Shown: positions 3,573 to 62,525 of the stretch, one piece after another
Layout: the number at the start of each line of letters is the position of its first letter
Numbering within the stretch: the first letter of the stretch is position 1
Source of the DNA: a virus
Taxonomy: Duplodnaviria > Heunggongvirae > Uroviricota > Caudoviricetes
Length of the DNA: 64,000 nt
IMG/VR virus record: IMGVR_UViG_3300013426_000013
Location: 61,580-125,579 of that record
Reading direction: 5' to 3' (one strand)
Program-made: the position numbers and the translations under genes
The notes under the pieces: model-generated
Told to the model about the DNA's origin: nothing
What the model saw: only the letters and a program-made list of their open reading frames with translations
Databases searched by the model: none

Positions 3573-4072
3573 TAAAATGATGCAATTTTTGGTGATAATG
3601 TTTTTAAATATTTAGGATCAACAATGTCAATCATGTTAACTTTTTTGAGCAGACTGTAAGGTGATGACCAAACGTTTTCTTGACTATATAAATCAGCACC
3701 ATGACTTAAAAGATAATTGATTTTATCTTTAGCATCATCAATATCTTCTTGCGTTGTGTGTTTATCTAAACTATCAACAAAGTTTTTTGTTATCATTTGT
3801 AAAACTTTATTCATACGTTCATTGTCAAAATAAGCAGGATAATGTTTAAGAAGCAGATCAGCAACATCAAAAGCTTTACTTTCAAAACATATAGCAAAAG
3901 CAATGCGACTATCTATTCCGAAATCTTTTGGATGCTGTTCCTCAAAGTTTTTAATGTCATCAACAGACATTGTTTCTACTGTAACAAATTCACGTTCAAC
4001 AAGTTTAGATAGTTTGTTCTGAATAACTTGCTTAAAGTCTTCAAACAGTGTTTCTTTACTAGACATTGACAA
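3569..4072 (-). CDS. hypothetical protein with ankyrin-like C-terminal segment
   Basis: 167 aa, overlapping the downstream ankyrin gene by 4 nt (operon-like). The C-terminal LLSHGADLY resembles one ankyrin repeat. Confidence 0.5.
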   Translation of the reverse strand: MSMSSKETLFEDFKQVIQNKLSKLVEREFVTVETMSVDDIKNFEEQHPKDFGIDSRIAFAICFESKAFDVADLLLKHYPAYFDNERMNKVLQMITKNFVDSLDKHTTQEDIDDAKDKINYLLSHGADLYSQENVWSSPYSLLKKVNMIDIVDPKYLKTLSPKIASFY

Positions 4073-4096
4073 CCTAATATTTATATGTTATGTTAC
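4068..4096 (+). promoter_or_regulatory. sigma70-like promoter TTGACA-N17-TATGTT
   Basis: TTGACA at 4068-4073 and TATGTT at 4091-4096, upstream of the 4133 gene. Confidence 0.4.
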
Positions 4097-4132
4097 ATGT
4101 CTTAAAGAACGATTATGTGGAAGGTAGTTTAG

Positions 4133-4492
4133 ATGCCTAATTTAGAAGAAAAATGTCTAAAGATAATGTTGAATAATTTTGTGAAAAATGATTGGTTTGT
4201 AAACTTAACATCTGAACAACAAACTAAAATGACATGTCTGTTAAATAAAGTTGTTAACAAAGATTATGGTTTAGATGTGGAAATCAAGAAGGTCATTTCA
4301 CAACCAACCTTTACCTTTATCAATTTAATTTGTTTTACAATAACATTAAAAAATAATGAACAGTTAACAATTTATGTTTCAGATGATATTAAAAAATATA
4401 AAGATAGATTAGATTGTATATGTTTAAAAAGAGTTAAAGACAATGAGTTTAATGTTGCGGATATCGGCGAGTCAGTTTTAAAAGAGTTATAA
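4133..4492 (+). CDS. small protein, CTM family; ends DIGESVLKEL
   Basis: 119 aa with a canonical C-terminus and an RBS GGAAGG. Confidence 0.6.
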   Translation: MPNLEEKCLKIMLNNFVKNDWFVNLTSEQQTKMTCLLNKVVNKDYGLDVEIKKVISQPTFTFINLICFTITLKNNEQLTIYVSDDIKKYKDRLDCICLKRVKDNEFNVADIGESVLKEL

Positions 4493-4493
4493 C

Positions 4494-4829
4494 ATGAGTT
4501 GTTTTGATAAATTATCAAAAGAGCAATTATATGATTTCATTGATGTTTTCGATGAGTTGATTTTAAAAGAATTCAAATGGTGTCGAGCATATGATAAAGA
4601 GTCATTTATTAATGACTTTCTAGCAACTGTTCAAGAACTGGATGACGTTTATTGTTTTTATATTGATGTAAAAAGAAAAGGTGGTAAGAAAAGAAATTCG
4701 CAATTTTTCTATTTTGATAAATTATTTTTCAATAATTTAAATAATTTCCATAAACTTAAACTTAAGCGTGTTGATGAAACAACTTTTATGGTAGAAGATA
4801 TTGGTAATGAAACTTTAGAAGGAATTTAA
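4494..4829 (+). CDS. small protein, CTM family; ends DIGNETLEGI
   Basis: 111 aa with a canonical C-terminus, tightly packed with its neighbours. Confidence 0.6.
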   Translation: MSCFDKLSKEQLYDFIDVFDELILKEFKWCRAYDKESFINDFLATVQELDDVYCFYIDVKRKGGKKRNSQFFYFDKLFFNNLNNFHKLKLKRVDETTFMVEDIGNETLEGI

Positions 4830-4830
4830 A

Positions 4831-5199
4831 ATGCAATTACAAGTCGGGATTGGTTTAGATAGTGTTGTTAAAAAAGCACAAGATTTAGTTGAACAATCAT
4901 CACCTTTATATATTATGGACAATGGTGTTAAAAGGGTAGTATTAGGTGTTCATACAAAAATTAATTCCGGTTTGATTTTTGATGACGATTACTATTATAT
5001 TGATGTTGCAACGAAAATAGTAGGCGAAGATTATTTTCAAACAAAAGCAACAATTCGTATTGCTGTTGATAAAAAATTGATTGATGCTATTCATGACACT
5101 AAAAAATACAAAGCTAAATTTGTTTATAGGTTAAGCGCAATTTGTAGCCAAGAATTAGAAATTGTTGATATAGGTGAACGTGTTTTATCAAAAATCTAG
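4831..5199 (+). CDS. small protein, CTM family; ends DIGERVLSKI
   Basis: 122 aa with a canonical C-terminus. Confidence 0.6.
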   Translation: MQLQVGIGLDSVVKKAQDLVEQSSPLYIMDNGVKRVVLGVHTKINSGLIFDDDYYYIDVATKIVGEDYFQTKATIRIAVDKKLIDAIHDTKKYKAKFVYRLSAICSQELEIVDIGERVLSKI

Positions 5200-5228
5200 T
5201 TGACATATATTAGTCATTGTTGTAACAT
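5200..5228 (+). promoter_or_regulatory. sigma70-like promoter TTGACA-N17-TAACAT
   Basis: TTGACA at 5200-5205, upstream of the 5327 gene. Confidence 0.4.
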
Positions 5229-5326
5229 ATCTTTAGAGAATAAACAATGAGTACAAATGATGAACATTAAATTAAAGATTGAAGATTTACATTGTAGACT
5301 TTATGATATTGGAGAAGAGTGTTTAG

Positions 5327-5716
5327 ATGCAGTTTGATTTATATAAAAACTCGAAACTTTTTAAAAATGTTCAACAGTTGTTTACAGTGGCTAAAGGTTT
5401 GGCTGTCAGGTGTGAAGATAATACTTTTGTCATTTTAAAGTTTCGAGAAAAAGGATATGGTTTTCAGATAAATGTGAATGGTGTTTTATGGGTAGGATTT
5501 CCTGTCGAATGCTTGAATTTTAACCCTCTTCTTCTTAACGAAGAAAAACCAATTGTTAATAACAATATCTTTTGTTTAGCGAGTTGGATTGAAAAAACTT
5601 CTGAATTCAAAAAAGAAAATCTTGAATTCTTTCAAATGAACAGTACGGATGCTTTAGACAATAAATTAGTTATTCAAGATAAATCAATTGGTGCTGTTAC
5701 ATTAAACAATATTTAA
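5327..5716 (+). CDS. small protein, CTM family; ends IGAVTLNNI
   Basis: 129 aa with G at -8, L at -4 and I at -1. Confidence 0.5.
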   Translation: MQFDLYKNSKLFKNVQQLFTVAKGLAVRCEDNTFVILKFREKGYGFQINVNGVLWVGFPVECLNFNPLLLNEEKPIVNNNIFCLASWIEKTSEFKKENLEFFQMNSTDALDNKLVIQDKSIGAVTLNNI

Positions 5717-5787: not shown

Positions 5788-6009
5788 ATGATTACAGCTG
5801 ATAAATCACATAAAGTTTTTGACAACAGCGGTTGGGTTCCTGTAAAAGATAGTGGTTGGATTATTTTACATAATGGATATGTTGTTTGCCAGAAATGTGG
5901 AAAAAAGACATCTCATAAATTATATTTAGGTGCCGAACATCACGATGATATTCATTGTCCAAATTGTGATAATGTAGTTATAGGATCAAATGGTTTGAAA
6001 GTACGCTAA
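5788..6009 (+). CDS. small zinc-ribbon protein
   Basis: 73 aa with CQKCGKK ... CPNCDN (two CxxC pairs). RBS AAAGGTG. Confidence 0.5.
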   Translation: MITADKSHKVFDNSGWVPVKDSGWIILHNGYVVCQKCGKKTSHKLYLGAEHHDDIHCPNCDNVVIGSNGLKVR

Positions 6010-8276
6010 TGAAATATTTAATCTTGCTTCGAGGACTTCCCGGGTCTGGCAAAAGTTATTGGGTAAAAGAAAACAAATTAGAAGATTATACTATTTCTTC
6101 TGATAATGTTCGTTTATTGTTTGCAACGCCATCTATCCCGTTTGCCGCATGTTATAAAGATAGAGGTATTTCACAAAAGAATGATAAAGACGTTTGGGAA
6201 CTCATTCATTCTTTAGTTGAACGTCGTTTAACGAACGGCATGACAACTATTGTTGATGCAACACATTTGACGGAAAAATCTATCAACTGCTATAAAAGCT
6301 TTTGTATGAATAATAATGTGCGTTGTATAGTGCTTGATTTTAATGTGAATGTTGAACAAGCTATAAACAATGATATGTTGCGTAAAGGTACATGTCGTTA
6401 TGTTGGCGAATATATCATCAAACGCATGAATGAAAATACCGAAAAGGTTTCTAAATGGGTTGATTATACAGATAAAGATCGTATTATAAAGATGTTTAAT
6501 GAATGTCTGGAACCTGTTGATTATAACGAAAAGTATGATAACATTGTAATCTTCGGTGATTTACACGGTTGTTATGAACCTTTAAAGCAGTGGTTTGATA
6601 AGCATCCTGTTAATGATAAAACTAAATATATCTTCTGTGGTGATTATGAAGATAGAGGTATTCAACATAAAGAGTTATTTGGTTTTCTTTTACAACATCG
6701 TAAAGATTTTAACTTTAAATTTTTAAAAGGAAATCATTCACGTCGTTTGTTGCAAATAGCTGAACGTGATAAAGATTCTATTCGATATCCGGAATACTAT
6801 AATACACTTGAACAGTTGAAAGATTTTGATCCTATTGAACTGAAAAAGTTTGTTCGGGATCAAGATGATATGATTTACTTCACATTTCGTAATAAAGTGT
6901 TTTGTGTATCACATGGTGGTATTAGTTGTTTACCGTCCTTGAAATTGAATAGTGATGAATACGTAAAAGGTCACGGTACATATCAAATGGCGCATCAAGT
7001 CGACGATGAGTTTTTGTTTAATGTCTCTATTGAGAATGACAACATTTATCAAGTACATGGCCATCGAAATGTAAATAACGAACCTGTTCAAGTAAATGAG
7101 CATTGCTTTAATCTAGAAGGTGGTATTGAATTTGGTGGTGAATTACGAATTCTTCAAATTAATAATAAAGGTGAATGTCATATACATACTATCAAGAATA
7201 CCGTGTTCAAACAATTGAATGATGATTCGAAGATTGTTAATGAGTTTAAGTATTCATCTTTAATTCGTAAATCTCAAAATCCTGACGGTATCAGTTCGTA
7301 TAATTTTAACCGTGATGCTTTTTATGACAAAAAGTGGAACAACTTGACATGTACAGCAAGAGGGTTGTTTGTATATGATGATACTGATAAAGTGGCATGT
7401 CGTTCGTTTAACAAATTTTTCAATCTCAATGAAGTAAAGACTTCTAGTCTAGATTGGGTTGTTAAGAATTGGCAAGGTATTACAAACGTTTATAAAAAGG
7501 AAAATGGTTATTTAGGAATCATTTCTGTTGATGTTCGTAATAACGAATTTATTTTTGCATCTAAAAGTCGTACTGATAAAGAGTATGCTTTAAATTTAAA
7601 ACGTATCTTTAATGATAAATTGTCGGATGAACAAAAAGATAATTTAAAAAAGTGGTTACTGAAAGATATAGATAAACATGGTGGTAATGCATATTCTTTA
7701 GTTGTTGAGGTTGTTGATCCTATAAACGATCCGCATATCATTAAATATGATAGTTGTGAATTGTTTATGCTTGAAGCTTTTGTTAATACGTTTAAAGAAG
7801 AAACAATTTCATATGACGCGTTAAAACAATTGCATGATTTAATTGGTTTAAAGATCAAGGGAAAGATTTGTGAAACATCAAATTTAAAATCAACAATTTA
7901 TGGTTTATGTAATTCAAAAGAACATGTTGAAGGTTTTGTTTTGGAAGGCTGTGACTTTAATGGAAAAGTGGTCAGGGTAAAAGTAAAAACAAAATATTAT
8001 TTGATGTGGAAGAAGTTTAGGTCGACAGGTTTGTTTGATAGAAGTTTTGATTGTGTAAACGGCTTAACAAATGAACAACAAGTGTTCGCTAAACAAATTT
8101 ATCTACGTGCAAAACAATTGATTGCTTTACAGGAAGGTCAAACTATTCAAACCAATGAGTTGATTAATGTAAATGCTGAAGTTGATAATTGCAATACATT
8201 AATCTATAAAGATTTGATTGGTGGGTGGCATATTAACATTCCTAAAGTAATTGAATTCGTAGAAAATATGAAATAG
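6009..8276 (+). CDS. pnkp: trifunctional polynucleotide kinase / 2',3'-phosphatase / RNA ligase (bacterial Pnkp-like RNA repair enzyme)
   Basis: 755 aa. N-terminal Walker A GLPGSGKS; central calcineurin-like metallophosphoesterase motifs GDLHG, GDYEDRG, GNHS; C-terminal nucleotidyltransferase motifs KENG (motif I lysine), EGFVLEG (IV), VKVKTK (V). The domain order matches Clostridium thermocellum Pnkp. Confidence 0.85.
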   Translation: MKYLILLRGLPGSGKSYWVKENKLEDYTISSDNVRLLFATPSIPFAACYKDRGISQKNDKDVWELIHSLVERRLTNGMTTIVDATHLTEKSINCYKSFCMNNNVRCIVLDFNVNVEQAINNDMLRKGTCRYVGEYIIKRMNENTEKVSKWVDYTDKDRIIKMFNECLEPVDYNEKYDNIVIFGDLHGCYEPLKQWFDKHPVNDKTKYIFCGDYEDRGIQHKELFGFLLQHRKDFNFKFLKGNHSRRLLQIAERDKDSIRYPEYYNTLEQLKDFDPIELKKFVRDQDDMIYFTFRNKVFCVSHGGISCLPSLKLNSDEYVKGHGTYQMAHQVDDEFLFNVSIENDNIYQVHGHRNVNNEPVQVNEHCFNLEGGIEFGGELRILQINNKGECHIHTIKNTVFKQLNDDSKIVNEFKYSSLIRKSQNPDGISSYNFNRDAFYDKKWNNLTCTARGLFVYDDTDKVACRSFNKFFNLNEVKTSSLDWVVKNWQGITNVYKKENGYLGIISVDVRNNEFIFASKSRTDKEYALNLKRIFNDKLSDEQKDNLKKWLLKDIDKHGGNAYSLVVEVVDPINDPHIIKYDSCELFMLEAFVNTFKEETISYDALKQLHDLIGLKIKGKICETSNLKSTIYGLCNSKEHVEGFVLEGCDFNGKVVRVKVKTKYYLMWKKFRSTGLFDRSFDCVNGLTNEQQVFAKQIYLRAKQLIALQEGQTIQTNELINVNAEVDNCNTLIYKDLIGGWHINIPKVIEFVENMK

Positions 8277-37692: not shown

Positions 37693-38331
37693 ATGAAAAA
37701 GTTTAATCTGAAATTGGGAAATAACTTTTGTCCTTTTTGTGGAAGTGAATTAACATATAACGATGAATATAAAGTAGTTTATTGCAAAACATGTAAAGAA
37801 AATGGACATACTGTTCAGTTTAAATATAAAGATGATCCGCAAGAAGCTTTTGATTATGCCAATACACGTAATGGTGAAAATGAGCTTTTAGAAAAGTTGC
37901 AAGACCTTTATGCATACTTAAAACAGTTAGGTATTGAAGGCCAGAATCTTGAAGATATTTCTGTGGCATCTGAAGGTGAATTGCCAAACAATGGTTGGAT
38001 TATCACTGAAGAAGCTGTTGCATTGCCTTGCGAAGAACCTCATGATGAAATGTATTCGCATTTAGTTACAGACAAAACCATTAATTTATCTGATCGTCAA
38101 GAAGTCTGCAATGTCATTCATTGTATTAATGTTACATATGTAATGAAAGTCCTTGACATATACATTCCAAAAAGATATAATGCAAAACAGAAAGAAGTTT
38201 TAACAAAGGTTTGCTCAAAGTATCCGAAAGATACTAAAATTGAAGTCGAATATTTGACAGAAGCTAAAGGCAAACAGTTTGAAACTTTTGATGGGTTAAG
38301 TGACTTTTTACTATTTTTGGATACAATCTAA
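37693..38331 (+). CDS. zinc-ribbon protein
   Basis: 212 aa with an N-terminal CPFCGSEL ... YCKTCKEN CxxC-CxxC ribbon. It directly precedes the radical-SAM array. Confidence 0.5.
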   Translation: MKKFNLKLGNNFCPFCGSELTYNDEYKVVYCKTCKENGHTVQFKYKDDPQEAFDYANTRNGENELLEKLQDLYAYLKQLGIEGQNLEDISVASEGELPNNGWIITEEAVALPCEEPHDEMYSHLVTDKTINLSDRQEVCNVIHCINVTYVMKVLDIYIPKRYNAKQKEVLTKVCSKYPKDTKIEVEYLTEAKGKQFETFDGLSDFLLFLDTI

Positions 38332-39194
38332 TGGATATCAAACCAATCACGGAATTTCTTCTTTGGGATAATTGCAATAACAATTGTAAGTTTTGTTTTC
38401 AACGGAAGAATCCAAGATTGTTTTCATTAGAGGAACAAGAACAAATTCTTGACAATGTGTTAAGGTTTCTTAATTCAGATGAATATATAAAAGGAAGTCA
38501 TGTACTCGTTGTTGGCGGTGAACTATTTGATCGTGATCGCGGGTTCATGCTTCCTTTTTTTGAACAGATTATTGAAAAAATGTTGTCTGACGACATTGAT
38601 ATTCTGTATTTGAATACGAATTTGATTTACGATCAAACATATTCAACAATGTTGAAACCTGTTTTAAAAATGTTCGATGCAAATAGTCTGTTTGACAGAT
38701 TAAAGTTCACAACATCTTTTGATATTGCCGGAAGGTTTAAAACGAAACAGGCACGTTCATTAGTATTGTCAAACCTATTGTTGTTAAAAGATGATTTTCC
38801 TAATCTTCGAACTGTTGTTAACATCATCTTAACAAAACAGTTTTGTGAAAGTGTTATCAATGAAAAGTTTGACATCTTTCATTTCATGGAATCGTTTAAT
38901 GTTAATACAAATCTAATTCCATACATTGTGTTGAATAAAGAGTTGTGTGCTGATAGAGAAACGATATTTGAAGCTTTAAGGAAGATTAATGAACAGCACC
39001 CTGAATATATCAGACAATACGTAGATAATATGGATTTGAGACATAAAAGGTATCTGTATGCTTGCTATCCAGATAATTTAAAATTGTGCAGTTGTGATGA
39101 TTCAGAATGTGGCCATTCTGTAAACTTTAAGAAATATAGCGATGACCATGAAGCATGTTTTGTTTGTGATTTAAAGAGAGTTTTTGATCTATGA
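38331..39194 (+). CDS. radical SAM enzyme, tandem paralog 1
   Basis: 287 aa with N-terminal NCNNNCKFCF (CX3CX2C [4Fe-4S]/SAM motif) and VVGGELFD (GGE SAM-binding motif). C-terminal cysteine cluster CSCDDSECGHSV ... CFVCD. Confidence 0.7.
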   Translation: MDIKPITEFLLWDNCNNNCKFCFQRKNPRLFSLEEQEQILDNVLRFLNSDEYIKGSHVLVVGGELFDRDRGFMLPFFEQIIEKMLSDDIDILYLNTNLIYDQTYSTMLKPVLKMFDANSLFDRLKFTTSFDIAGRFKTKQARSLVLSNLLLLKDDFPNLRTVVNIILTKQFCESVINEKFDIFHFMESFNVNTNLIPYIVLNKELCADRETIFEALRKINEQHPEYIRQYVDNMDLRHKRYLYACYPDNLKLCSCDDSECGHSVNFKKYSDDHEACFVCDLKRVFDL

Positions 39195-40147
39195 CTAAAG
39201 TAAACACAAATGTAGTAGATTGTGGTGAACATCGTTTTCTACAATTTAATTTATGGAAAGATTGCAATAATAATTGTGAATTTTGTTTTTATCGTGGTCA
39301 CAAATTGTTATCAAATGAAAAGAAAATTTCATCAATCAATTTTGTTAAAGAAAGATTGTTGGATTTGGAAGAATCTGATTTCTATAATGAAATTGGTTTC
39401 ATTGGTGGTGAGTTTTTTGATAATCAGATTGAAGATGAATCTGTGAAAAAGGCTTTTTACAAATTATTTGATATTTTAAAAGACAAACGAGAGCGCGGAA
39501 AGCTTGACCGTATTTATATTACAACTAATCTGATTTTTGATTCGAACAGATTGTTGAGACCGTTTCTTGACTACTTAAAAGAATTAAATTTATTAGATAT
39601 CACATTGTTGTGTACTTCATATGATTTGAAGTATCGGTTTCATAATGAAAAAGCATTACAGTTGTGGCAAACCAATATGGTTGAATTGTCAAAAGATTAT
39701 AACACAATGATTCATACAGAGATTATTGTGACGCAAGCATTTATTGACGCTGTAATGAAGGGAACATTTAATATTGAAGAGTTCTGTGAAAAATACAACA
39801 CACGTATTGATTATATTGAACCATCTTCAGGGTTTTATTTTTATGATAAAAAAGAGTGTGAGAAGGAAGTTAAAGACTTCTTCCCAAAACGTGAAGATTT
39901 CTTAAACTTTATTCAATATACAGCAATTGATAACCATTGGATTGATTTAACAAAATTCTTATCAATGCGCATTCGTTCTGATACGTTATATTGTCATTTA
40001 AAAGGACAGTGGCGAAAATTAGAAGGTCGTCGATCTCAATACATTTGTCCAACTTTAGGTTTGTATAATGTGACATATGAGAATGGTTATTGTGATTCAA
40101 AAGAGTCAATGGTTGAAGATGTTAATGCATTTTTAGGTAGTGTTTAA
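39191..40147 (+). CDS. radical SAM enzyme, tandem paralog 2
   Basis: 318 aa with DCNNNCEFCF and FIGGEFFD. The C-terminus differs (YCHLKG ... YICPTLG ... YCDS). Confidence 0.7.
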   Translation: MTKVNTNVVDCGEHRFLQFNLWKDCNNNCEFCFYRGHKLLSNEKKISSINFVKERLLDLEESDFYNEIGFIGGEFFDNQIEDESVKKAFYKLFDILKDKRERGKLDRIYITTNLIFDSNRLLRPFLDYLKELNLLDITLLCTSYDLKYRFHNEKALQLWQTNMVELSKDYNTMIHTEIIVTQAFIDAVMKGTFNIEEFCEKYNTRIDYIEPSSGFYFYDKKECEKEVKDFFPKREDFLNFIQYTAIDNHWIDLTKFLSMRIRSDTLYCHLKGQWRKLEGRRSQYICPTLGLYNVTYENGYCDSKESMVEDVNAFLGSV

Positions 40148-41079
40148 TGGGAAAAATGGTGCAATATTCGATGTGGTCTAATTGCAGCAATCATTGTGAT
40201 TTCTGTTTAATTCGTGACCATCATCACTATACGAAAAAAGAGCAGGTTGCTAATATTCGTAGGATTCGCGAAAACATCAAGCATGTTGATTGGCAAAATG
40301 AATTTTCATACGGAATTTCTTTATTAGGTGGTGAATTGTATTTCATTACAGATAAAGAAGTGCAAGATGAATTCATGCTGTTAATTAATGATATCATTGA
40401 TAATATTCTGTTAAAAGTTGATAATGAATTCTGTCGATATTCATCCGTTACAAATGGCTTGTATGATCCAACGTTTCTTTTTCGTGTAATTGATGAAATT
40501 AAAAACCGTGCAGGTATTGAAAAGGTTGATATTAACTTTTCATACGATTTGAAATACAGATATCATTCTGAAGAAAGAAGAAAACTTGCTTTAGAAAATA
40601 TTAACAAATTTCATGACCGATACAACTATCGTGTTGGTGTTCAGATGATTGTTACACAACATTTGATTAATTTATGTAAATCAGGTGAATTTAATGTAGC
40701 CGAATTTGTTGAAAAAGAAATTCCTGGTTGTGTGTTGTCATTGTTGTACCCGCACCCTGTTCAGACAGGAAATAAACTCCCAGATTTTTTCTTTAAACGT
40801 GAAGATCTGTTTTGGTTTGTCGATTACTTAAGAGAAAATTGTCTTGATACGTATTATAATTTTTTGTATAGTACAAAAAATTCCGGAACTTTTAAATATA
40901 CAGGGTTCCTTGACAGAACATCTAAAGGATTAAAACACCTTGATCAACAACCAACTTTATCTGATGGTAAAGAAGAGTTAAGTGAATGCGGACATTCTGT
41001 TTTGTATAAATGCTATTCTGATAGTAATGACTGTATGTTGTGTGATTTGGAATTACTAGAAGCGGATATTAATTCATGA
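40147..41079 (+). CDS. radical SAM enzyme, tandem paralog 3
   Basis: 310 aa with NCSNHCDFCL and LLGGELYF. C-terminal ECGHSVLYKCYSDSNDCMLCD. Confidence 0.7.
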   Translation: MGKMVQYSMWSNCSNHCDFCLIRDHHHYTKKEQVANIRRIRENIKHVDWQNEFSYGISLLGGELYFITDKEVQDEFMLLINDIIDNILLKVDNEFCRYSSVTNGLYDPTFLFRVIDEIKNRAGIEKVDINFSYDLKYRYHSEERRKLALENINKFHDRYNYRVGVQMIVTQHLINLCKSGEFNVAEFVEKEIPGCVLSLLYPHPVQTGNKLPDFFFKREDLFWFVDYLRENCLDTYYNFLYSTKNSGTFKYTGFLDRTSKGLKHLDQQPTLSDGKEELSECGHSVLYKCYSDSNDCMLCDLELLEADINS

Positions 41080-42056
41080 ATACTGAAATGAACAATAGAC
41101 AGGAATGCCAATTTGAAGTTTGGACTGAATGCAATTCTAAATGTGTCTTTTGTTATTTAAGTACAAATAACATCAAAACTTTAGATGAAATTAAAATCAG
41201 GCAAATGAATAAAATCATTGACAGCATGAATGAACCTGATTTTTGCAAAAAGTTTAATAAAGTAGCATTTATTGGTGGTGAATTTTATCAAGGACAATTG
41301 GCTAATCCTGAAGTCAAATCCAAATTTATGGAAATGATGGATGTTGCTGCTAAATTGTTGAATGACGGTAAAATTAATGAAGTCTGGACATGTGCAACTT
41401 TAACCATTGGCGACCAAAAAGATATGTATGAAGTGTTGAAGAAATTCAATGATATATCAAAAGTTTGGGTGTTGACATCCTATGATACAATTGGAAGATT
41501 CCATACACCTAAAATGAAACAAACATGGCTCGACAATATGCAAAAGCTGCGTGATACATATAAAGATATTAAAATCAATATCACATCTATTCTAACAGGT
41601 GATTTTATTGATAAATATCTTGAAGGTACTTTAGATTTATGGGAGATTGCTAACAAATATCAGGCTGCTGTTTTCTTGAAACCTGCTTGCCCTATTGACC
41701 GTAATGAAAAGTCACAATATACAAAAGAAGAAACGAATCAAATTATTCCAAACTTCTTTCCAACACGTGACAAATTTATTGAATTTCTATATAAATTTAG
41801 AATGAATGAACCTGAATTTATGTATGATAAATTGTTCAATATGAAATATCGCAGCGATTATTTGTATAGATTTGAAGAAGGTGAAATGCACTGTTCCCAT
41901 CGTGTAAAGGAAACACAGCAAGAATTTTATGATAAACAAATTGCCGACAATGTTGTTAATAAATGTGGTCATAGTTCACAATATCAAATCTATTTAGATA
42001 GCGAAGAGTGTGCAGTTTGTGATAAAGAAATGATTAAGGAAATGCTAAATGATTGA
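41076..42056 (+). CDS. radical SAM enzyme, tandem paralog 4
   Basis: 326 aa with ECNSKCVFCY and FIGGEFYQ. C-terminal CSHR ... NKCGHSSQY ... EECAVCD. Confidence 0.7.
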   Translation: MNTEMNNRQECQFEVWTECNSKCVFCYLSTNNIKTLDEIKIRQMNKIIDSMNEPDFCKKFNKVAFIGGEFYQGQLANPEVKSKFMEMMDVAAKLLNDGKINEVWTCATLTIGDQKDMYEVLKKFNDISKVWVLTSYDTIGRFHTPKMKQTWLDNMQKLRDTYKDIKINITSILTGDFIDKYLEGTLDLWEIANKYQAAVFLKPACPIDRNEKSQYTKEETNQIIPNFFPTRDKFIEFLYKFRMNEPEFMYDKLFNMKYRSDYLYRFEEGEMHCSHRVKETQQEFYDKQIADNVVNKCGHSSQYQIYLDSEECAVCDKEMIKEMLND

Positions 42057-42987
42057 ATCTATTCTAGAAAAAGTAGCGTTTAACAGTGCTGAATTTGCAT
42101 ATTATAAAGAAGCATTAAAGAGTTATAATGCAAAAGAACTGATGTCTGAACGTGATTATGTATCTGTAGACGAAACTTTAAAAAAGTTTTTACCTTGTCA
42201 AATTAATGATGATTATCATTTCACATTTTCTACTACAGCAACAGATTTAATTAAACAGTTGTTTGCAAAATATGTTGATGATGAAACTTTAGTTTTGACA
42301 ACAAATAGCGAACATCCAAAAGTTCAAGAAATTCTAAAGAAATGTAAAAATGTTGTTAAGGCTTTTGATAAAGAAACATTGCAGCAGTTTACAGTAGACA
42401 AGAAATATAAACGTGTTTTTATTTATATGATTGGTACAATGTGTGCAACAGGTCATATTGTATATGATCAAGAATTTGAATCAATCATTGAACGTGCGAA
42501 AGCGTCAGGAAAAGAAGTAATTACAGTTATTGATGCCGTTCAGGAATTGTTTTTGTTATATCGTGATTATAATAAATTCGATTATGTTATTGGAACAGCT
42601 CATGCCTTAATCCCAGAATACAACGTTGGATTGTTACTATCAAAAGATAATTCAATTGGGAAACCTTTAGCAATTGCTCAACCTTTTGTTACAATGCTGA
42701 ATTGGTTGTTGAAACGAAAAGAGTATCTTTATCAATTTAATACCTATATGAGTATGGAATTTGGAAATACTCGCAACACTCAATTTCATTTTGATTTTGG
42801 TATTAGTCACCTGTTTTTTATTAAAACTAGAAATGGTGAATTTAATCAAATGCAGGAAGAAGACACTGTAAGAGATAATATTGATAATGTTGGCGTACTG
42901 TTTAGAGGTTGTTGGTCTGTTGTAGATAAAAACAATTTTAACAATCTTTTTCAAACAACAAAATTTATTGTTGATGGGAATTTATAA
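42049..42987 (+). CDS. cysteine-desulfurase-like protein lacking PLP lysine, paralog 2
   Basis: 312 aa with TTNSEHPKV, IDAVQELF and DYVIGTAHALIPEYNVGLLLS, the same K-to-A substitution as paralog 1. Confidence 0.55.
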   Translation: MIESILEKVAFNSAEFAYYKEALKSYNAKELMSERDYVSVDETLKKFLPCQINDDYHFTFSTTATDLIKQLFAKYVDDETLVLTTNSEHPKVQEILKKCKNVVKAFDKETLQQFTVDKKYKRVFIYMIGTMCATGHIVYDQEFESIIERAKASGKEVITVIDAVQELFLLYRDYNKFDYVIGTAHALIPEYNVGLLLSKDNSIGKPLAIAQPFVTMLNWLLKRKEYLYQFNTYMSMEFGNTRNTQFHFDFGISHLFFIKTRNGEFNQMQEEDTVRDNIDNVGVLFRGCWSVVDKNNFNNLFQTTKFIVDGNL

Positions 42988-43076
42988 TCAAATTTTTATA
43001 TAAAATCATATAAATATCACTTGTATTTTCCTTAAAAAGATGATATTATAAAATAAGTAAGTTAAGGATTATCTGA

Positions 43077-44423
43077 ATGATAACATTGAAAATTAAATAT
43101 ATTGCAGAAAGGGCATCTGATAATCAGGTGATAGCTGATTATCAGATGCAGTATAATAATCTTCTGCATTTATTCTATAATAGATTAAAGGATGGTACAT
43201 CTGAAACAAAATGTAAACATTTACAATTCAATAACCTTGATTTAATGAAATCTTGGTTTAGACAATCTTGTGTGAAAGATGCTTCATTCTTGTTAAAGAA
43301 GAATGAGGAAACAATCTTATTTGGTGGAAAGTATCTTTTTGAACAAAGATTTAGACATAACATTTCAAAGGAAGAATTTAAAGAAAGAAGATTAGTTCCA
43401 TTGTGTTCAATTGGTGAAGGCAGATGTAATGGAAATAGATTCTTCAGATTGTCTGAAGATTGTTATTCAGTCATATTTAGTCCTATGTTAAAACAAAAGA
43501 CGAAGTTAAAACTCATTGGTGTTGGTAATAGGATTAAAGTATTAAAGAAATTATATATTCACCAACAATTAAAAGATACACCAATTACTTATAAATTGGA
43601 TAAGAAATTTGTATATATCTCATTTGATGAATCTATCTTACGAGATAAGATTGTTAAACCAATATCCAACAGAATATTTTCCATAGATATGAATCCCAAT
43701 TACATCGGATGGTCAGTCGTAGACTTGAAAGAATCTGATGAATTCAAGGTTGTGAATTCAGGTGTAATATCACTGAAAAATATCAACGATGTTGAGTTCA
43801 AATTTAAGAAATTAAAATTACCTTCAACATCCACAGAAAGAAAACATCTGAACAATAAACGCAACTATGAAACATTGGAAGTATCAAAGTTTCTTGTCGA
43901 TATATCTAAACATTATCATTGTGAGTGTTTTGCTATTGAAGATTTGGTTATCAAATCCAAGGATAATTATCAAGGAAAGAATTTCAATAGACTTATAAAC
44001 AATAATTGGAATAGAAATAAACTAGTCAATAACTTAAGAAAAAGATGTAATATATTCGGTATTAAATTTGTAGAAATATCTCCACAATATTCATCTGTTA
44101 TAGGCAATTTAGTTTACAGGGAATTAAGATTACCTGATATGGTTTTATCTTCTATTGAGATCAGTAGAAGATGCTATGAATTTAATCTTCAATACATAAA
44201 GAAGATTAAAGCTAAAACGAAGAATGTGATCTTTCCAGATTTAACAGAATTACTATTAGACAAAGTAAAACACTCGTTGGAAGAAGTAAAGTGCTTTGTG
44301 GATTTTGTGAGTTGGAAACAGATTCATTCAGAGTTAAAGAAATCTAAACTTAGATATAGATTTCCTCTTGACGAAAGAGTCTTTAAGACTAAAACCTTAA
44401 GGTTTATTAATGTTTTTATATGA
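43077..44423 (+). CDS. TnpB/OrfB (IS200/IS605)-like protein, truncated, lacking zinc finger and RuvC-III (TldR-like, probably nuclease-dead)
   Basis: 448 aa. The N-terminus MITLKIKYIAE ... NNLLHLFYNRL resembles the TnpB N-terminus. RuvC-I is FSIDMNPNYIGWSV and RuvC-II is CFAIEDLVIKSKDNYQGKNFNRLINNNW ... GIKFVEISPQYSSVIGN (compare TnpB IAIEDLNVKG ... W ... PxYTSQxC). There is no CxxC ... CxxC finger and no D-x-D-x-NAA motif downstream. Confidence 0.55.
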   Translation: MITLKIKYIAERASDNQVIADYQMQYNNLLHLFYNRLKDGTSETKCKHLQFNNLDLMKSWFRQSCVKDASFLLKKNEETILFGGKYLFEQRFRHNISKEEFKERRLVPLCSIGEGRCNGNRFFRLSEDCYSVIFSPMLKQKTKLKLIGVGNRIKVLKKLYIHQQLKDTPITYKLDKKFVYISFDESILRDKIVKPISNRIFSIDMNPNYIGWSVVDLKESDEFKVVNSGVISLKNINDVEFKFKKLKLPSTSTERKHLNNKRNYETLEVSKFLVDISKHYHCECFAIEDLVIKSKDNYQGKNFNRLINNNWNRNKLVNNLRKRCNIFGIKFVEISPQYSSVIGNLVYRELRLPDMVLSSIEISRRCYEFNLQYIKKIKAKTKNVIFPDLTELLLDKVKHSLEEVKCFVDFVSWKQIHSELKKSKLRYRFPLDERVFKTKTLRFINVFI

Positions 44424-44454
44424 TTTTAATGAATTTTAATATTTTAGGTGTTTA

Positions 44455-45420
44455 ATGAAATTAATTGCTAATTGGTTGAACAGTTTCAACTACTCAAAAG
44501 AAGAGCTTGCTAAATTGACTAGCATACGTGATTCTGAACAAATTGTTGAAGATAATTTTGAAGAAGAAAAAAATAGAACTTTTTCTATGCTTCCATTCAA
44601 TAGCTTTACGCATAAAGAATTATCAGTGGATACGTGTGCTACAAACATTATAAATAAATTGTTTGATAAATATGTTGACGATGATACTTTAGTTATTACT
44701 ACAGGTAGTGAACATCATTCTGTTAAAAATAATTTTAAGAAATGCAAGAATTTAATTCATTTTGTTTGTCGAGGTGAGATTCGTAAAGATATAGACATTA
44801 TAAAAGAAATCAAACCTTTTAAAAAGGTATTCATTTATATGATTGCTTTAAGCGTTGGTGATACACATTATTTAAACAATTGTATTATTGAATGGTTGCA
44901 ACAAATTTTAAAAGAAAACAATAAACAGTTTGTTACTGTATTGGATGCTGTTCAAGAACTATTTCTATTGCCACGTGACTACTCTATTTATGATTATGTA
45001 GTAGGTACTTCACATGCTTTGATTCCAAATTATGATATGGGTATGTTATTTGGTAAATCAGACTTTTCTTATAAAGCAGGAAATTGGTTGAAAGATTTTA
45101 ACGATTGCATGTCAATTTTATTAAGAAATAGAGACAAACTCTATCAATTAAATGTAATTATGAGGCAGCATTTTGCTAAATTTACAACATTTGATAAAGA
45201 CTTAATTGATTCAAGTCGAGCGCCATACGTTTATAATTTATGTGACTATAAAAAACGTTTAGAAGGGTTAAATGATGTAGATTATGAGCACGGGGCAATT
45301 GTCCCGGGTGATTATACACCTGTAACTTTTCGAGCCTGTCCTTTCCTTGCACATCAAGAAAAGTTTATAGATAGGATACAACAAATAGACAATATTCTTG
45401 AAATAGATATTGGCAATTAA
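44455..45420 (+). CDS. cysteine-desulfurase-like protein lacking PLP lysine, paralog 3
   Basis: 321 aa with TTGSEHHSV, LDAVQELF and DYVVGTSHALIPNYDMGMLFG (Ser at the Lys position). Confidence 0.55.
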   Translation: MKLIANWLNSFNYSKEELAKLTSIRDSEQIVEDNFEEEKNRTFSMLPFNSFTHKELSVDTCATNIINKLFDKYVDDDTLVITTGSEHHSVKNNFKKCKNLIHFVCRGEIRKDIDIIKEIKPFKKVFIYMIALSVGDTHYLNNCIIEWLQQILKENNKQFVTVLDAVQELFLLPRDYSIYDYVVGTSHALIPNYDMGMLFGKSDFSYKAGNWLKDFNDCMSILLRNRDKLYQLNVIMRQHFAKFTTFDKDLIDSSRAPYVYNLCDYKKRLEGLNDVDYEHGAIVPGDYTPVTFRACPFLAHQEKFIDRIQQIDNILEIDIGN

Positions 45421-45424
45421 AAAC

Positions 45425-45453
45425 AAAGGCTGGAATTAAAATTTCCAGCCTTT
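45425..45453. terminator. bidirectional rho-independent terminator
   Basis: AAAGGCTGGAA ... TTCCAGCCTTT hairpin between convergent genes. Confidence 0.6.
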
Positions 45454-45457
45454 ACTA

Positions 45458-46069
45458 CTAAACAGTTGCTTTATTGATGTTGACCATTCTTTGTTGTTGG
45501 TCTGTTGTTCGATATAGTTGTTTATCAAACCAATCAAGACCTTCAATATTGTTTGGAACGATTGCAAATTTTAAATCATCTTTAAATTTAATTGAGTTAT
45601 CTTCAATAAAAGGTTTGAACATGTCTTTTACACAAACAAATGAACAATTCTTTAAAAGATAGTTTCTCAATTCAGAATATATTCCAAAAGCATCGAGATG
45701 ATCTAAACGAAGTAAAGTTTCATTGATTTTATTGTAGTCTTCTTCGTTTATTGTTGACATTGCACAACCACAAACGATCCTCGATTGTTGTGTTGAATCA
45801 TAACTTAATTGATTGACTGTAAGTATAACTAAATGTGTTTTATCAAAAAACACTCGCATCCTGACAAAACTAAACACGCCTTTATTTTCGACATCGTTTT
45901 CAGCATGGAATGAGAATTCCTTCAAATCATCTTTATTCCATTCATCACCTTTAACATATTGAGAAATATAGCTAAAATCTTCTTTAGCATATTTCATGTG
46001 CTTTTCTTCTAAAGGATGCCCATAGCTTTCTTTCATTAATTGCAAAAACAATTCAGTAAACGTTTTCAT
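45458..46069 (-). CDS. hypothetical protein
   Basis: 203 aa. Confidence 0.5.
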   Translation of the reverse strand: MKTFTELFLQLMKESYGHPLEEKHMKYAKEDFSYISQYVKGDEWNKDDLKEFSFHAENDVENKGVFSFVRMRVFFDKTHLVILTVNQLSYDSTQQSRIVCGCAMSTINEEDYNKINETLLRLDHLDAFGIYSELRNYLLKNCSFVCVKDMFKPFIEDNSIKFKDDLKFAIVPNNIEGLDWFDKQLYRTTDQQQRMVNINKATV

Positions 46070-61271: not shown

Positions 61272-62525
61272 ATGTCTAACTATCAAATAAATCAATCAGT
61301 TGTTCAAGATTTGCAGACAGACAAAAACACAATAATTGATAAATTTAATTCGAATAGAATTGTGTCAATTCCACAGGATATTGTTATTACATTTGATAGC
61401 GGCGTGTTGACATTGATATCAGGTAGTAAATTGTATGTCCCGAATGGTTTTGAATCAGATGGCACAACACCAAAATTTGATATATTTATTTTGCAAAAAG
61501 ATGTTATATCGACAAGAAATTCATCAGTAAAAGAGTTTTATATGTATGAAACAAAGAATGATGTAATATCTCAATGGGGTAATTCAAGTTTTTGCATAAT
61601 TAGTTCAGGAACGACAGCGCCAACAGGAAAAACTTTTATGTGCTGGTATGACTTGAATGATAATAAAATTAAAGTAACAAAAGATTCGGGAGCAACATGG
61701 GAAGATCGCGGAATGAGTTTTCCTTTCTGTTTGGCTACATCTAGTGATACAGCAATAAAACAAGTTGATCAATTGTTTAATGGTTTTGGATATATTGGTT
61801 CAACTTGTTATATTCTTCCAGGTGTTACTGGATATATTCCAAAAGGGTTAAATTCAGACGGAACATTAATTAATGAAATAATTACACAAACAAAAGTGTC
61901 TATAACAACTGTTACTTCATCATGGGGTACTGGTTCAGAAACCTTTTTCTTTAATGGTGTTGATAGTTATATTCATCGTGCATCAAAAAATTGTTTTTAT
62001 CAAGCAACGCAACCTATAGTTAAAGATGTTGAAAATTATTGGTTTAACACAGCATCTGGAAAATATTATGAAACAAAAGATTCTGGATTAACATGGACAG
62101 AATTTAAAGCAATTCCAGCATTCACAATTACTTTTGATAATAGTTTAATTACTTCTTTAAAATCTTGTGGTGTACATGAACTAGTTAATTCAAATGCAAC
62201 GAATTTATCTGACTATGGAAGAGAAATTATTTCTGGTTTAGGAAAACCTTCAGACAAATATATTGATCTGACTGTCGGGGCTTCTGGAACGACTTATATT
62301 GCTCCAATGAATGGCTATATTTATTGTAGTGGTCATGCCAATGCTTCACCTGCATATATATCAATTGATATTCCAAACTTACAATATTGTGGAATAAATG
62401 GTAATGAAGGACATGATTTAACAACAAATCAAATAGCATTAAAAATTGGTGATAAATTTACTCTACGCTATAGTAACACAACAATTAATGCTTTTAGGTT
62501 TGTTTATGATGAAGGGTGCTCTTAA
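61272..62525 (+). CDS. tail-fibre-like structural protein, paralog B
   Basis: 417 aa with an N-terminus paralogous to 18774-20096(-) and 62611-63909 (IPQDIVITFDSGVLTLISGSKLYVPNGFESDGTTPKFDIFILQKD). Confidence 0.6.
   Translation: MSNYQINQSVVQDLQTDKNTIIDKFNSNRIVSIPQDIVITFDSGVLTLISGSKLYVPNGFESDGTTPKFDIFILQKDVISTRNSSVKEFYMYETKNDVISQWGNSSFCIISSGTTAPTGKTFMCWYDLNDNKIKVTKDSGATWEDRGMSFPFCLATSSDTAIKQVDQLFNGFGYIGSTCYILPGVTGYIPKGLNSDGTLINEIITQTKVSITTVTSSWGTGSETFFFNGVDSYIHRASKNCFYQATQPIVKDVENYWFNTASGKYYETKDSGLTWTEFKAIPAFTITFDNSLITSLKSCGVHELVNSNATNLSDYGREIISGLGKPSDKYIDLTVGASGTTYIAPMNGYIYCSGHANASPAYISIDIPNLQYCGINGNEGHDLTTNQIALKIGDKFTLRYSNTTINAFRFVYDEGCS

Follow-up and report, generated by a model that had tools for sequence, protein, structure and literature searches.

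The open reading frame (ORF) at positions 43077–44423 of a 64,000-nucleotide stretch of viral DNA (IMG/VR record IMGVR_UViG_3300013426_000013, positions 61,580 to 125,579; hereafter, the window) lies on the plus strand between two genes for NifS-like proteins and encodes a TnpB-like protein of 448 amino acids (aa), ending at a TGA codon. The gaps around it measure 89 nt upstream and 31 nt downstream, in agreement with the original prediction, made from the sequence alone, which gave approximately 90 and 30 nt and took the gene for a truncated and possibly nuclease-dead TnpB relative. A comparison of the two flanking genes confirmed that they are true paralogs, with 41% identity over 187 aa (E 4e-43). 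The ORF proved to belong to a discrete mobile element with definable ends (Table 1). We interpret this element, with reasonable though far from complete confidence, as a solo-TnpB insertion sequence that stems from an IS607-type element, encodes a catalytically competent RNA-guided endonuclease, and acts as an active RNA-guided homing element.

Table 1. Features of the tnpB-like locus, in positions of the window.
Feature	Position	Strand	Basis or comment
Upstream NifS-like paralog, flank outside the element	42049..42987	+	
TAA at the left junction, candidate target/transposon-adjacent motif (TAM) or crossover core	42985..42987	+	Stop codon of the upstream NifS-like gene
Whole mobile element, read as a solo-TnpB derivative of an IS607-type insertion sequence	42988..44455	+	1,468 bp
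Left end, non-coding leader conserved between copies	42988..43076	+	89 nt, AAGGA ahead of the ATG; alignments
tnpB-like gene without zinc finger	43077..44423	+	448 aa
Codon of D204, RuvC-I catalytic aspartate (SIDMNPNY)	43686..43688	+	Invariant in two family alignments
Codon of E288, RuvC-II catalytic glutamate (AIEDL)	43938..43940	+	Invariant
14-residue linker SVIGNLVYRELRLP in place of the C4 zinc-finger/TNB domain	44094..44135	+	Sequence
Codon of D354, proposed RuvC-III catalytic aspartate in LPDMVLSSIEISRR	44136..44138	+	Invariant, together with R364 and R365
Last ~75 codons, suppressed synonymous variation	44202..44423	+	Synonymous-codon identity
Hairpin 1 of the omegaRNA-like scaffold	44339..44364	+	8-bp stem 44339–44346/44357–44364, 10-nt loop; codons for KKSKLRYRF
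Hairpin 2, abutting hairpin 1	44365..44379	+	CUCUU/AAGAG in the window copy, longer in other subfamilies
Long terminal stem-loop spanning the stop codon	44389..44447	+	Minimum free energy folds, cross-subfamily permutation test
8-nt scaffold tail, right end of the element, GTGTTTAA	44448..44455	+	
Putative guide segment TGAAATTAATTGCTAATTGG, 5' end of the downstream gene	44456..44475	+	Inferred from TnpB systems (PMC13565253)
Downstream NifS-like paralog, flank	44455..45420	+	Its own ATG straddles the element boundary

The proposed relationship of the 448-aa protein to TnpB was borne out by a fold search on its predicted structure, which revealed a bilobed WED–REC–RuvC fold in common with Cas12f and TnpB, and by the TIGR01766 model ("TnpB-related"), which was matched over all 82 of its positions (E 4.8e-7; 30.2 bits against a cut-off of 32). 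A weak match to PHROG 12300 "transposase" was also obtained (E 1.2e-3), and no Pfam family, OrfB_IS605 and OrfB_Zn_ribbon included, matched the protein at E ≤ 1. Against the PDB sequences, a profile of 66 family sequences gave only marginal matches to Cas12f, that to AsCas12f running from RuvC-II to strand beta-5, and a profile of 28 relatives gave none. The hhalign comparisons of the family profile with one canonical TnpB and with a 12-sequence canonical profile had low probabilities, covered only the part from RuvC-II to beta-5, and did not place RuvC-III; the homolog search started from the ISCaje3 TnpB gave no protein below 78% identity and therefore a poor profile. Relatives of the window protein have weak precomputed matches to PF27229 (SSO2105_N).

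Among the motifs of the protein are SIDMNPNY with D204, AIEDL with E288, W311, and FVEISPQYSS, the last three making up the RuvC-II block that had been recognized earlier. E288, W311, and PQYSS align with the matching residues of AsCas12f and canonical TnpB, E288 standing at the RuvC-II glutamate of AsCas12f (mEDL) and of the canonical ISCaje3 TnpB (LET). The 66-sequence family alignment, which reaches down to 31% identity, has only 11 invariant columns, namely G113, N120, R199, D204, N206, P207, E288, G343, D354, R364, and R365. It should be noted that D354 stands at the RuvC-III position, the motif that the original prediction had reported absent. In the predicted structure, this residue opens the helix 354–374 directly behind strand beta-5, and its motif LPDMVLSSIEISRR resembles DRDLNASINIL of the canonical ISCaje3 TnpB. 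Because of its invariance, its helix position after beta-5, and this motif resemblance, we propose D354 as the RuvC-III aspartate. As judged from the alignments, the D204–E288–D354 triad is retained and the protein is not predicted to be nuclease-dead.

Meanwhile, the reported lack of a zinc finger held on careful alignment, even though the reported lack of RuvC-III did not. No CxxC pair is present after C324, the sole cysteines beyond it being C366 and C406, and no cysteine of the zinc-finger region is invariant or nearly so across the family alignments. Just 14 residues separate PQYSS from D354, where canonical TnpBs carry the C4 zinc finger. The 60-position PF07282 TNB model is matched by a close relative at positions 3–28 only, and the hidden Markov model and hhalign alignments to canonical proteins break off at PQYSS.

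The description of the protein as truncated also had to be abandoned. Approximately 95 residues follow D354, and nearly all of the full-length family members listed measure 430–470 aa and have the same C-terminal region, so that the protein is of full length. The family counts more than 2,500 members in the set clustered at 90% and 1,546 representatives at 50% identity (E ≤ 1e-3), with homologs in the Prevotella Lak megaphages and the Campylobacter Eucampyvirinae phages. From these comparisons, the 448-aa protein is probably a catalytically competent RNA-guided DNA endonuclease of a large phage-enriched TnpB branch. TAG recoding was considered as a source of the apparent truncation and rejected, as the stop of the gene is TGA and the long ORFs of the window mostly end with TAA. 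In-frame TAG codons were seen in the TnpB genes of the Lak-type loci L026, L032, L034, L037–L041, L046, and L054. Stop-codon recoding has been reported for Lak megaphages, and these codons seem to fit it; the window phage is apparently not recoded.

The ends of the element emerged from an alignment of the flanks of seven copies located in unrelated contexts. The DNA similarity between them sets in approximately 89 nt ahead of the ATG and breaks off at ...AGGTRTTTAA (...TTTTAGGTRTTTAA), and the sequences beyond are unrelated. In the other subfamilies examined, the similarity between copies ends approximately 10–65 nt past the stop codon. An empty site was found in a related phage (L086/L087/L088; flanking gene 84% identical), where the two NifS-like genes overlap by one base in TAATG (...ATCTAATGAAACTAATTACTAATTGG) and where the sequence reads ...ATCTAA/TGAAAC..., the slash marking the position of the junction. 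The same region of the window reads ...TTATAA/TCAAATTT...GGTGTTTAA/TGAAAT..., the left junction being ...TTATAA/TCAAATTTTT and the right one ...GGTGTTTAA/TGAAATTAATTGCTAATTGG. The suggestion that the gene had been inserted between the NifS-like paralogs was thus confirmed: the element occupies the TAATG of the pair, with TAA (or AA) at both junctions. As the TAA of the left junction recurs as the last 3 nt of the element (44453–44455), its boundaries are uncertain by up to 3 nt. Inspection by eye showed TAA next to the conserved left end of most copies in two subfamilies, that of the window and that of L022; an automated BLAST scan for left boundaries and TAMs was fuzzy in the AT-rich DNA and produced no logo. 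A search inside the window for the empty sites of other copies yielded none that was usable.

At its right end, the element restores the start codon (ATG) of the downstream gene and carries, 4 nt ahead of this codon, the Shine-Dalgarno-like AGGTG (44446–44450). With the start codon and this ribosome-binding motif supplied, both NifS-like neighbours stay intact, and AGGTG may make up for the loss of translational coupling to the upstream NifS-like gene. The left-end leader presumably carries a promoter; a scan of 42988–43076 for the sigma-70 consensus showed no convincing promoter-like site. A 14-nt perfect inverted repeat connects the left end (43001–43014, TAAAATCATATAAA) with the loop of the terminal hairpin (44415–44428, TTTATATGATTTTA); it is partly kept in the sister copies and may be due to chance in AT-rich DNA.

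Copies 78–88% identical to that of the window were found in at least seven unrelated contexts in other phage contigs, such as before the large terminase gene (L009), after DNA polymerase A (L011 and L080), near an intein-containing helicase gene (L008, with two divergent copies), beside RNase T (L085), beside PfkB (L083), and in one further context (L079). The identical protein was present on at least 22 contigs, and single viral contigs contained up to seven copies of the family. In the window itself, no other copy of the protein, the element, or the RNA motif was detected, and a megablast of the 10 kb around the tnpB-like gene against the phage collection gave no match.

Two of these neighbourhoods showed further peculiarities. 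In L008, the divergent family TnpBs at 4001–5362 (453 aa) and 6564–7796 (410 aa; 33% identical to the window protein) are separated by 1.2 kb, with a 258-aa gene between them, and the pair adjoins the intein-bearing helicase gene. In L080 (1–2401, compared with L011 866–3901), a segment of approximately 1.2 kb interrupts the DNA polymerase A gene that precedes the TnpB element; an extra 352-aa ORF was called in this region, and the segment is absent from the otherwise 97%-identical L011. This segment looks like another mobile insertion in the same neighbourhood.

The transposon family was indicated by the genes accompanying the relatives. In 16 fetched family loci (about a quarter), a gene of approximately 200 aa is located directly upstream of tnpB on the same strand. 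Of these genes, five were scanned; a Resolvase domain was present in all five (E 1e-15 to 1e-21) and an N-terminal MerR-type helix-turn-helix in four. An 80-aa resolvase remnant is present upstream of the ISCaje4 TnpB in the Campylobacter phage CP220. The presence of a serine recombinase upstream of the relatives assigns the family to the IS607 type and not to IS605, the family that the original prediction had named for a possible remnant. As noted earlier for TnpA, the 64-kb window contains no Y1 or serine-recombinase gene, and none is found upstream of its tnpB copy, which makes this copy a solo derivative. The IS607 hallmark of a GG terminus and insertion at or after GG was not observed, since the right end reads ...GGTGTTTAA and the target is TAA/TG.

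The existence of a structured, guide-RNA-like element at the 3' end of the gene, which the original prediction had raised as a possibility, was supported by three kinds of evidence: synonymous constraint, hairpin covariation, and the terminal stem. Among seven close copies, the synonymous-codon identity amounted to 0.80–0.85 over the last ~75 codons, compared with ~0.65 over most of the gene, indicating that an overlapping nucleic-acid constraint acts there. The identity was also raised over the first ~20 codons. The conserved scaffold is folded from the last ~120 nt of the element, and its components are listed in Table 1.

Hairpin 1 was tested on an anchored MAFFT alignment of 53 distinct sequences. 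The cells of its stem were paired in 94.6% of cases, and compensatory changes were found in seven of the eight pairs. Changes on both sides were counted in 75 cells, compared with no more than 18 when the partner was slid by 1–3 columns, and none of 500 shuffles reached the observed value. The same helix was obtained independently with RNAalifold and was the top helix in an unbiased scan of the codon alignment. Part of the covariation is synonymous (Ser TCT together with Arg AGA versus Ser TCG with Arg CGA), and part changes the amino acids (Lys AAA/Phe TTT, Lys AAG/Leu CTT, Asn AAC/Val GTT). As 26 cells hold G–U wobble pairs, which would read as A–C mismatches in the opposite strand, the structure can be assigned to the sense strand. 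It is a clean case, visible at the codon level, of a protein sequence shaped by an overlapping RNA structure.

Hairpin 2 was predicted in nearly all subfamilies, with ~70% of the cells paired and several covarying pairs in a model-fitted alignment. A covariance model of hairpins 1 and 2 had one non-seed match, which lay 3'-terminally in the second TnpB gene of L008 (33% identical to that of the window), and a single match in the window. The linker between hairpin 2 and the terminal stem reads UCUUUAA in the window copy and GUUUUCUA or AGUUUUCUA in most other subfamilies. The terminal stem was examined across subfamilies: the 9-nt 5' arm at the homologous position in 11 of them pairs with the last 35 nt of its own element at 8.5 of 9 positions, compared with 6.7 of 9 for the tails of other subfamilies, and none of 20,000 permutations reached the own-tail value. 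A per-sequence shuffle test of this stem was not significant in the AT-rich sequence, and RNAalifold gave no consensus on 12 distal 3' regions, as MAFFT had put the 3' arms in different columns. The scaffold search suggested earlier thus had a divided outcome. A covarying scaffold was indeed found at 44339–44447; meanwhile, in a search of 42000–46000 against Rfam at E ≤ 1, no omegaRNA or RAGATH family matched, the only sub-threshold match, to HrrF, lying outside the element. No terminator was detected between the scaffold and the flank in a scan of the right end.

By analogy with known systems, the layout of this 3' structure is that of a TnpB omegaRNA. Since the scaffold runs up to the boundary of the element, the downstream gene would supply the guide with its first ~20 nt. 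In the empty allele, TAA is followed by TGAAACTAATTACTAATTGG, which matches the putative guide at 18 of 20 positions. In a search of the window, the putative guide (44456–44475) matched its own flank and nothing else.

Another hairpin was noticed near the beginning of the gene. At 43113–43147, over tnpB codons 13–24, a near-perfect hairpin has a 14-bp stem and a 7-nt loop (CATCTGATAATCAG-GTGATAG-CTGATTATCAGATG). It is kept in the window subfamily, not clearly elsewhere, and coincides with the raised synonymous identity of the first ~20 codons. It may be a left-end or translation-control element.

If the element is an active RNA-guided homing element, its cycle could run as follows. The tnpB mRNA would read on through the right end, and its 3' part would fold into hairpin 1, hairpin 2, the short linker, the long terminal stem, and the short tail. 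The scaffold would then be processed to an omegaRNA, with the first ~16–20 nt of the flank, from 44456 on, as the guide. "Empty" alleles, that is, TAA followed by the guide-matching sequence, would be cut by the ribonucleoprotein; such alleles may be available in related phages infecting the same cell or in genomes that have lost the element by excision. An occupied genome would serve as the template for recombinational repair, by which the element would be copied into the cut allele (homing). To reach new sites, the element would require the serine recombinase (TnpA), supplied in trans by full-length relatives.

Several observations weigh against this reading. The RuvC-III aspartate was assigned by its invariance, its place in the helix, and the similarity of its motif rather than by superposing residues, and the profile alignments stop at the missing zinc finger. 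The protein scores below the Pfam thresholds and slightly below the TIGR01766 cut-off. The zinc-finger/TNB domain is part of the nuclease lobe in Cas12f and TnpB, so its loss could alter or abolish double-strand DNA cleavage. On the RNA side, the support for hairpin 2 comes from the model-fitted alignment, the 5' arms for the terminal-stem test were picked from predicted folds, and the 3' region has no counterpart in Rfam. The TAA of the junctions, an AT-rich motif partly recognized by eye, would be common by chance in a genome of 30% GC, so that the TAM is a candidate only; in addition, a single empty site was found. Finally, the window copy has no transposase, and its current mobility depends on homing or on mobilization in trans.

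Some of the same observations would suit an active selfish nuclease that uses no guide RNA, in which the 3' structure would be an element working at the DNA or mRNA level (recombinase binding, right-end recognition, or regulation of expression) and the targeting would be protein-based, as in free-standing homing endonucleases or resolvases, or the protein would have another role. The position of the element between conserved phage genes resembles that of free-standing homing endonuclease genes, and one relative is annotated as "putative endonuclease". Resolvases, too, are matched by a RuvC fold on its own, the protein has no zinc finger, and no known omegaRNA family matches. However, the protein is similar over its full length to proteins that hold guide RNAs, and the position of the scaffold likewise argues for a guide RNA. 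We therefore consider such a nuclease unlikely, albeit worth keeping in mind.

The original prediction put forward a TldR-like protein, that is, a nuclease-dead RNA-guided transcriptional repressor domesticated by the phage. A phage-borne TnpB homolog with a guide-RNA-like scaffold, no zinc finger, and no transposase nearby has the appearance of such a repressor, and the loss of TNB could in principle impair cleavage yet spare binding. This proposal is nevertheless difficult to reconcile with a D-E-D triad that is invariant across a family without C-terminal truncation, with a transposase still carried by about a quarter of the relatives, and with a putative guide that, within the window, matches its own flank only. 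Moreover, the close copies occur in many unrelated contexts and in multiple copies per genome, and no recurrent association with one target gene was seen. The discrete ends, the empty site, the contexts numbering at least seven, and the up to seven copies per contig are what would be expected of a nuclease that moves rather than of a repressor domesticated for one target gene, and a TldR-like function appears very improbable to us. That the gene is a decaying, non-functional IS605/IS607 remnant, for which the absence of a transposase from the window copy and of any Pfam match could be cited, is hardly credible, given a full-length protein with all 11 family-invariant residues that recurs unchanged on at least 22 contigs, relatives 78–88% identical that keep the element ends, purifying selection on both the protein and the RNA pairs, and a family of more than 1,500 clusters at 50% identity whose listed full-length members nearly all measure ~430–470 aa, while neither frameshifts or stops in most close copies nor a dN/dS near 1 were seen.

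With the RNA-guided homing element as the preferred reading, a broader proposal can be made more tentatively, and we would rate it at somewhat less than an even chance. The large and essentially uncharacterised zinc-finger-less TnpB lineage to which the protein belongs (at least 1,500 clusters at 50% identity) may form a system of RNA-guided homing between jumbo phages and megaphages (such as Lak and Campylobacter Eucampyvirinae) that infect the same cell. Its minimal AT-rich, TAA-type TAM would steer the insertions to positions just after stop codons, and the first hairpin of its omegaRNA would be written in the C-terminal codons. If true, this would be a natural example of "non-restorative" transposon homing in phages. 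Confirmed activity would mean that the zinc-finger/TNB domain is dispensable for an RNA-guided RuvC nuclease, would provide a compact nuclease (~450 aa) with a short AT-rich TAM, and would indicate that RNA-guided homing shapes the genomes of jumbo phages, which contain up to seven copies each, often beside terminase, polymerase, and helicase genes.

The genes surrounding the element were also examined. For the downstream NifS-like protein, a structure predicted with AlphaFold2 (mean predicted local distance difference test score of 92.4) had its best Foldseek matches among NifS-like, SufS, and IscS structures (1ecx, E 9e-11), and NCBIfam gave weak matches to cysteine-desulfurase models for both paralogs. 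At the level of the modelled fold, the label "NifS-like paralogs" is therefore correct. Both proteins contain the motif GT(A/S)HAL, in which T185, H187, and A188 are conserved in the family. Cysteine desulfurases have S-x-H-K at the corresponding motif. From this comparison, the lysine that binds pyridoxal 5'-phosphate (PLP) seems to be replaced by alanine in both paralogs, which may be non-canonical or non-catalytic proteins of the PLP fold. The NifS-like pair is preceded, at 38331–42056, by four consecutive genes with weak matches to radical S-adenosylmethionine (SAM) proteins, one of them with a faint viperin-like match. As this radical-SAM block is kept in the related phages L086 and L089, it suggests a phage-encoded modification or biosynthetic cassette. 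On the other side of the element, the Rfam match to the small RNA HrrF mentioned above lies on the minus strand at 45422–45536 (29.1 bits against a gathering score of 77, E 0.031); it overlaps the 3' end of the minus-strand gene 45458–46069 and is probably due to chance. The window as a whole is phage-like and belongs to a contig of ~314 kb in which the identical tnpB-like gene is present, and among its genes is that for a 755-aa fusion of polynucleotide kinase/phosphatase and RNA ligase (6009–8276; PHROG 8238, E 3e-154), an enzyme of the phage tRNA-repair type.

Compared with the canonical TnpB (ISDra2) and Cas12f, the window protein has the same WED/REC/RuvC fold, the same D...E...D order, the motifs xIEDL, W, and PxY(T/S)S, and the predicted 3' guide-RNA arrangement. 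It differs in having no C4 zinc finger/TNB domain, in its RuvC-III motif (PDMVLSSIEISRR instead of DRDxNAAxNI), and in the ~85 extra C-terminal residues after that motif; the last ~25 residues are of low confidence in the model and are encoded by the RNA-scaffold region. The TldRs are immobile, are linked to particular target genes (e.g., fliC), and show a loss of catalytic residues or of the C-terminal part of RuvC. The locus in the window resembles the TldR family (10.1101/2023.11.30.569447) as a phage-associated TnpB homolog with a guide RNA-like scaffold at its 3' end and no transposase nearby; in contrast, the triad of its family is invariant and the element is mobile and multicopy.

According to Altae-Tran et al. 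2023 (PMC10691335), certain large branches of TnpB no longer have zinc fingers. One virus-enriched clade of this kind, RIIIr-4, has no C4 zinc finger, is over-represented in viruses, includes MazE-associated members, has histidine in place of the RuvC-III aspartate, and is probably still active (PMC10691335). As compared by description, the window family shares with RIIIr-4 the absence of the zinc finger, whereas D354 is invariant in it and neither a conserved histidine at this position nor a recurrent MazE-like neighbour was found. As the RuvC-III aspartate is kept, we did not file the family under RIIIr-4. The free-standing homing endonuclease genes of T4-like phages (Seg, Mob) are likewise intergenic between conserved genes, are present or absent in related phages, and are expected to spread by cutting the empty allele during co-infection (for the concept, see PMC13565253). 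The window element is distinguished from them by its predicted RNA guidance in place of protein-based recognition, its sharply defined ends, and a guide scaffold of its own.

The closest annotated relative is ISCaje4 of the Campylobacter phage CP220 (NC_027997; PMC2853527), whose protein is annotated as "ISCaje4 transposase TnpB" and is 44% identical to the window protein over the full length. In common with the window copy, ISCaje4 has the zinc-finger-less PDxVLxSIEIxRR motif and hairpin 1, belongs to a large virulent phage, and adjoins replication genes; unlike the window copy, it has the resolvase remnant upstream. In 2010, it was filed under IS200/IS605, "subgroup IS608", and its RNA, target, and catalysis were not analysed there (PMC2853527).

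The system to which the element can best be related is IS607 with its TnpB and omegaRNA, e.g., the IS607 of H. pylori. Canonical IS607 elements end in GG, insert at GG, and have G-rich TAMs (AGGAG/GAGGG) and an omegaRNA of the RAGATH-18 type (PMC13565253). The family studied here resembles them in the serine recombinase gene directly upstream of tnpB in the 16 loci, in the lack of obvious terminal inverted repeats, in a predicted structured RNA that overlaps the 3' end of tnpB and finishes at the right end, and in one short motif present at both the target and the 3' terminus of the element. Its shared motif is TAA/AA, its flanks are AT-rich, and its RNA has no match in Rfam; in addition, the window TnpB has no zinc finger and the window copy no TnpA. 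The departures from the textbook IS607-type TnpB are thus the missing zinc finger, a TAA/AT-rich target instead of a GG/G-rich one, and an unrecognised putative omegaRNA. For specialists, this is ordinary biology in kind, and the value of the locus lies in its strong in-frame RNA covariation and in its being a clean, well-delimited example of a large uncharacterised zinc-finger-less branch of TnpB.

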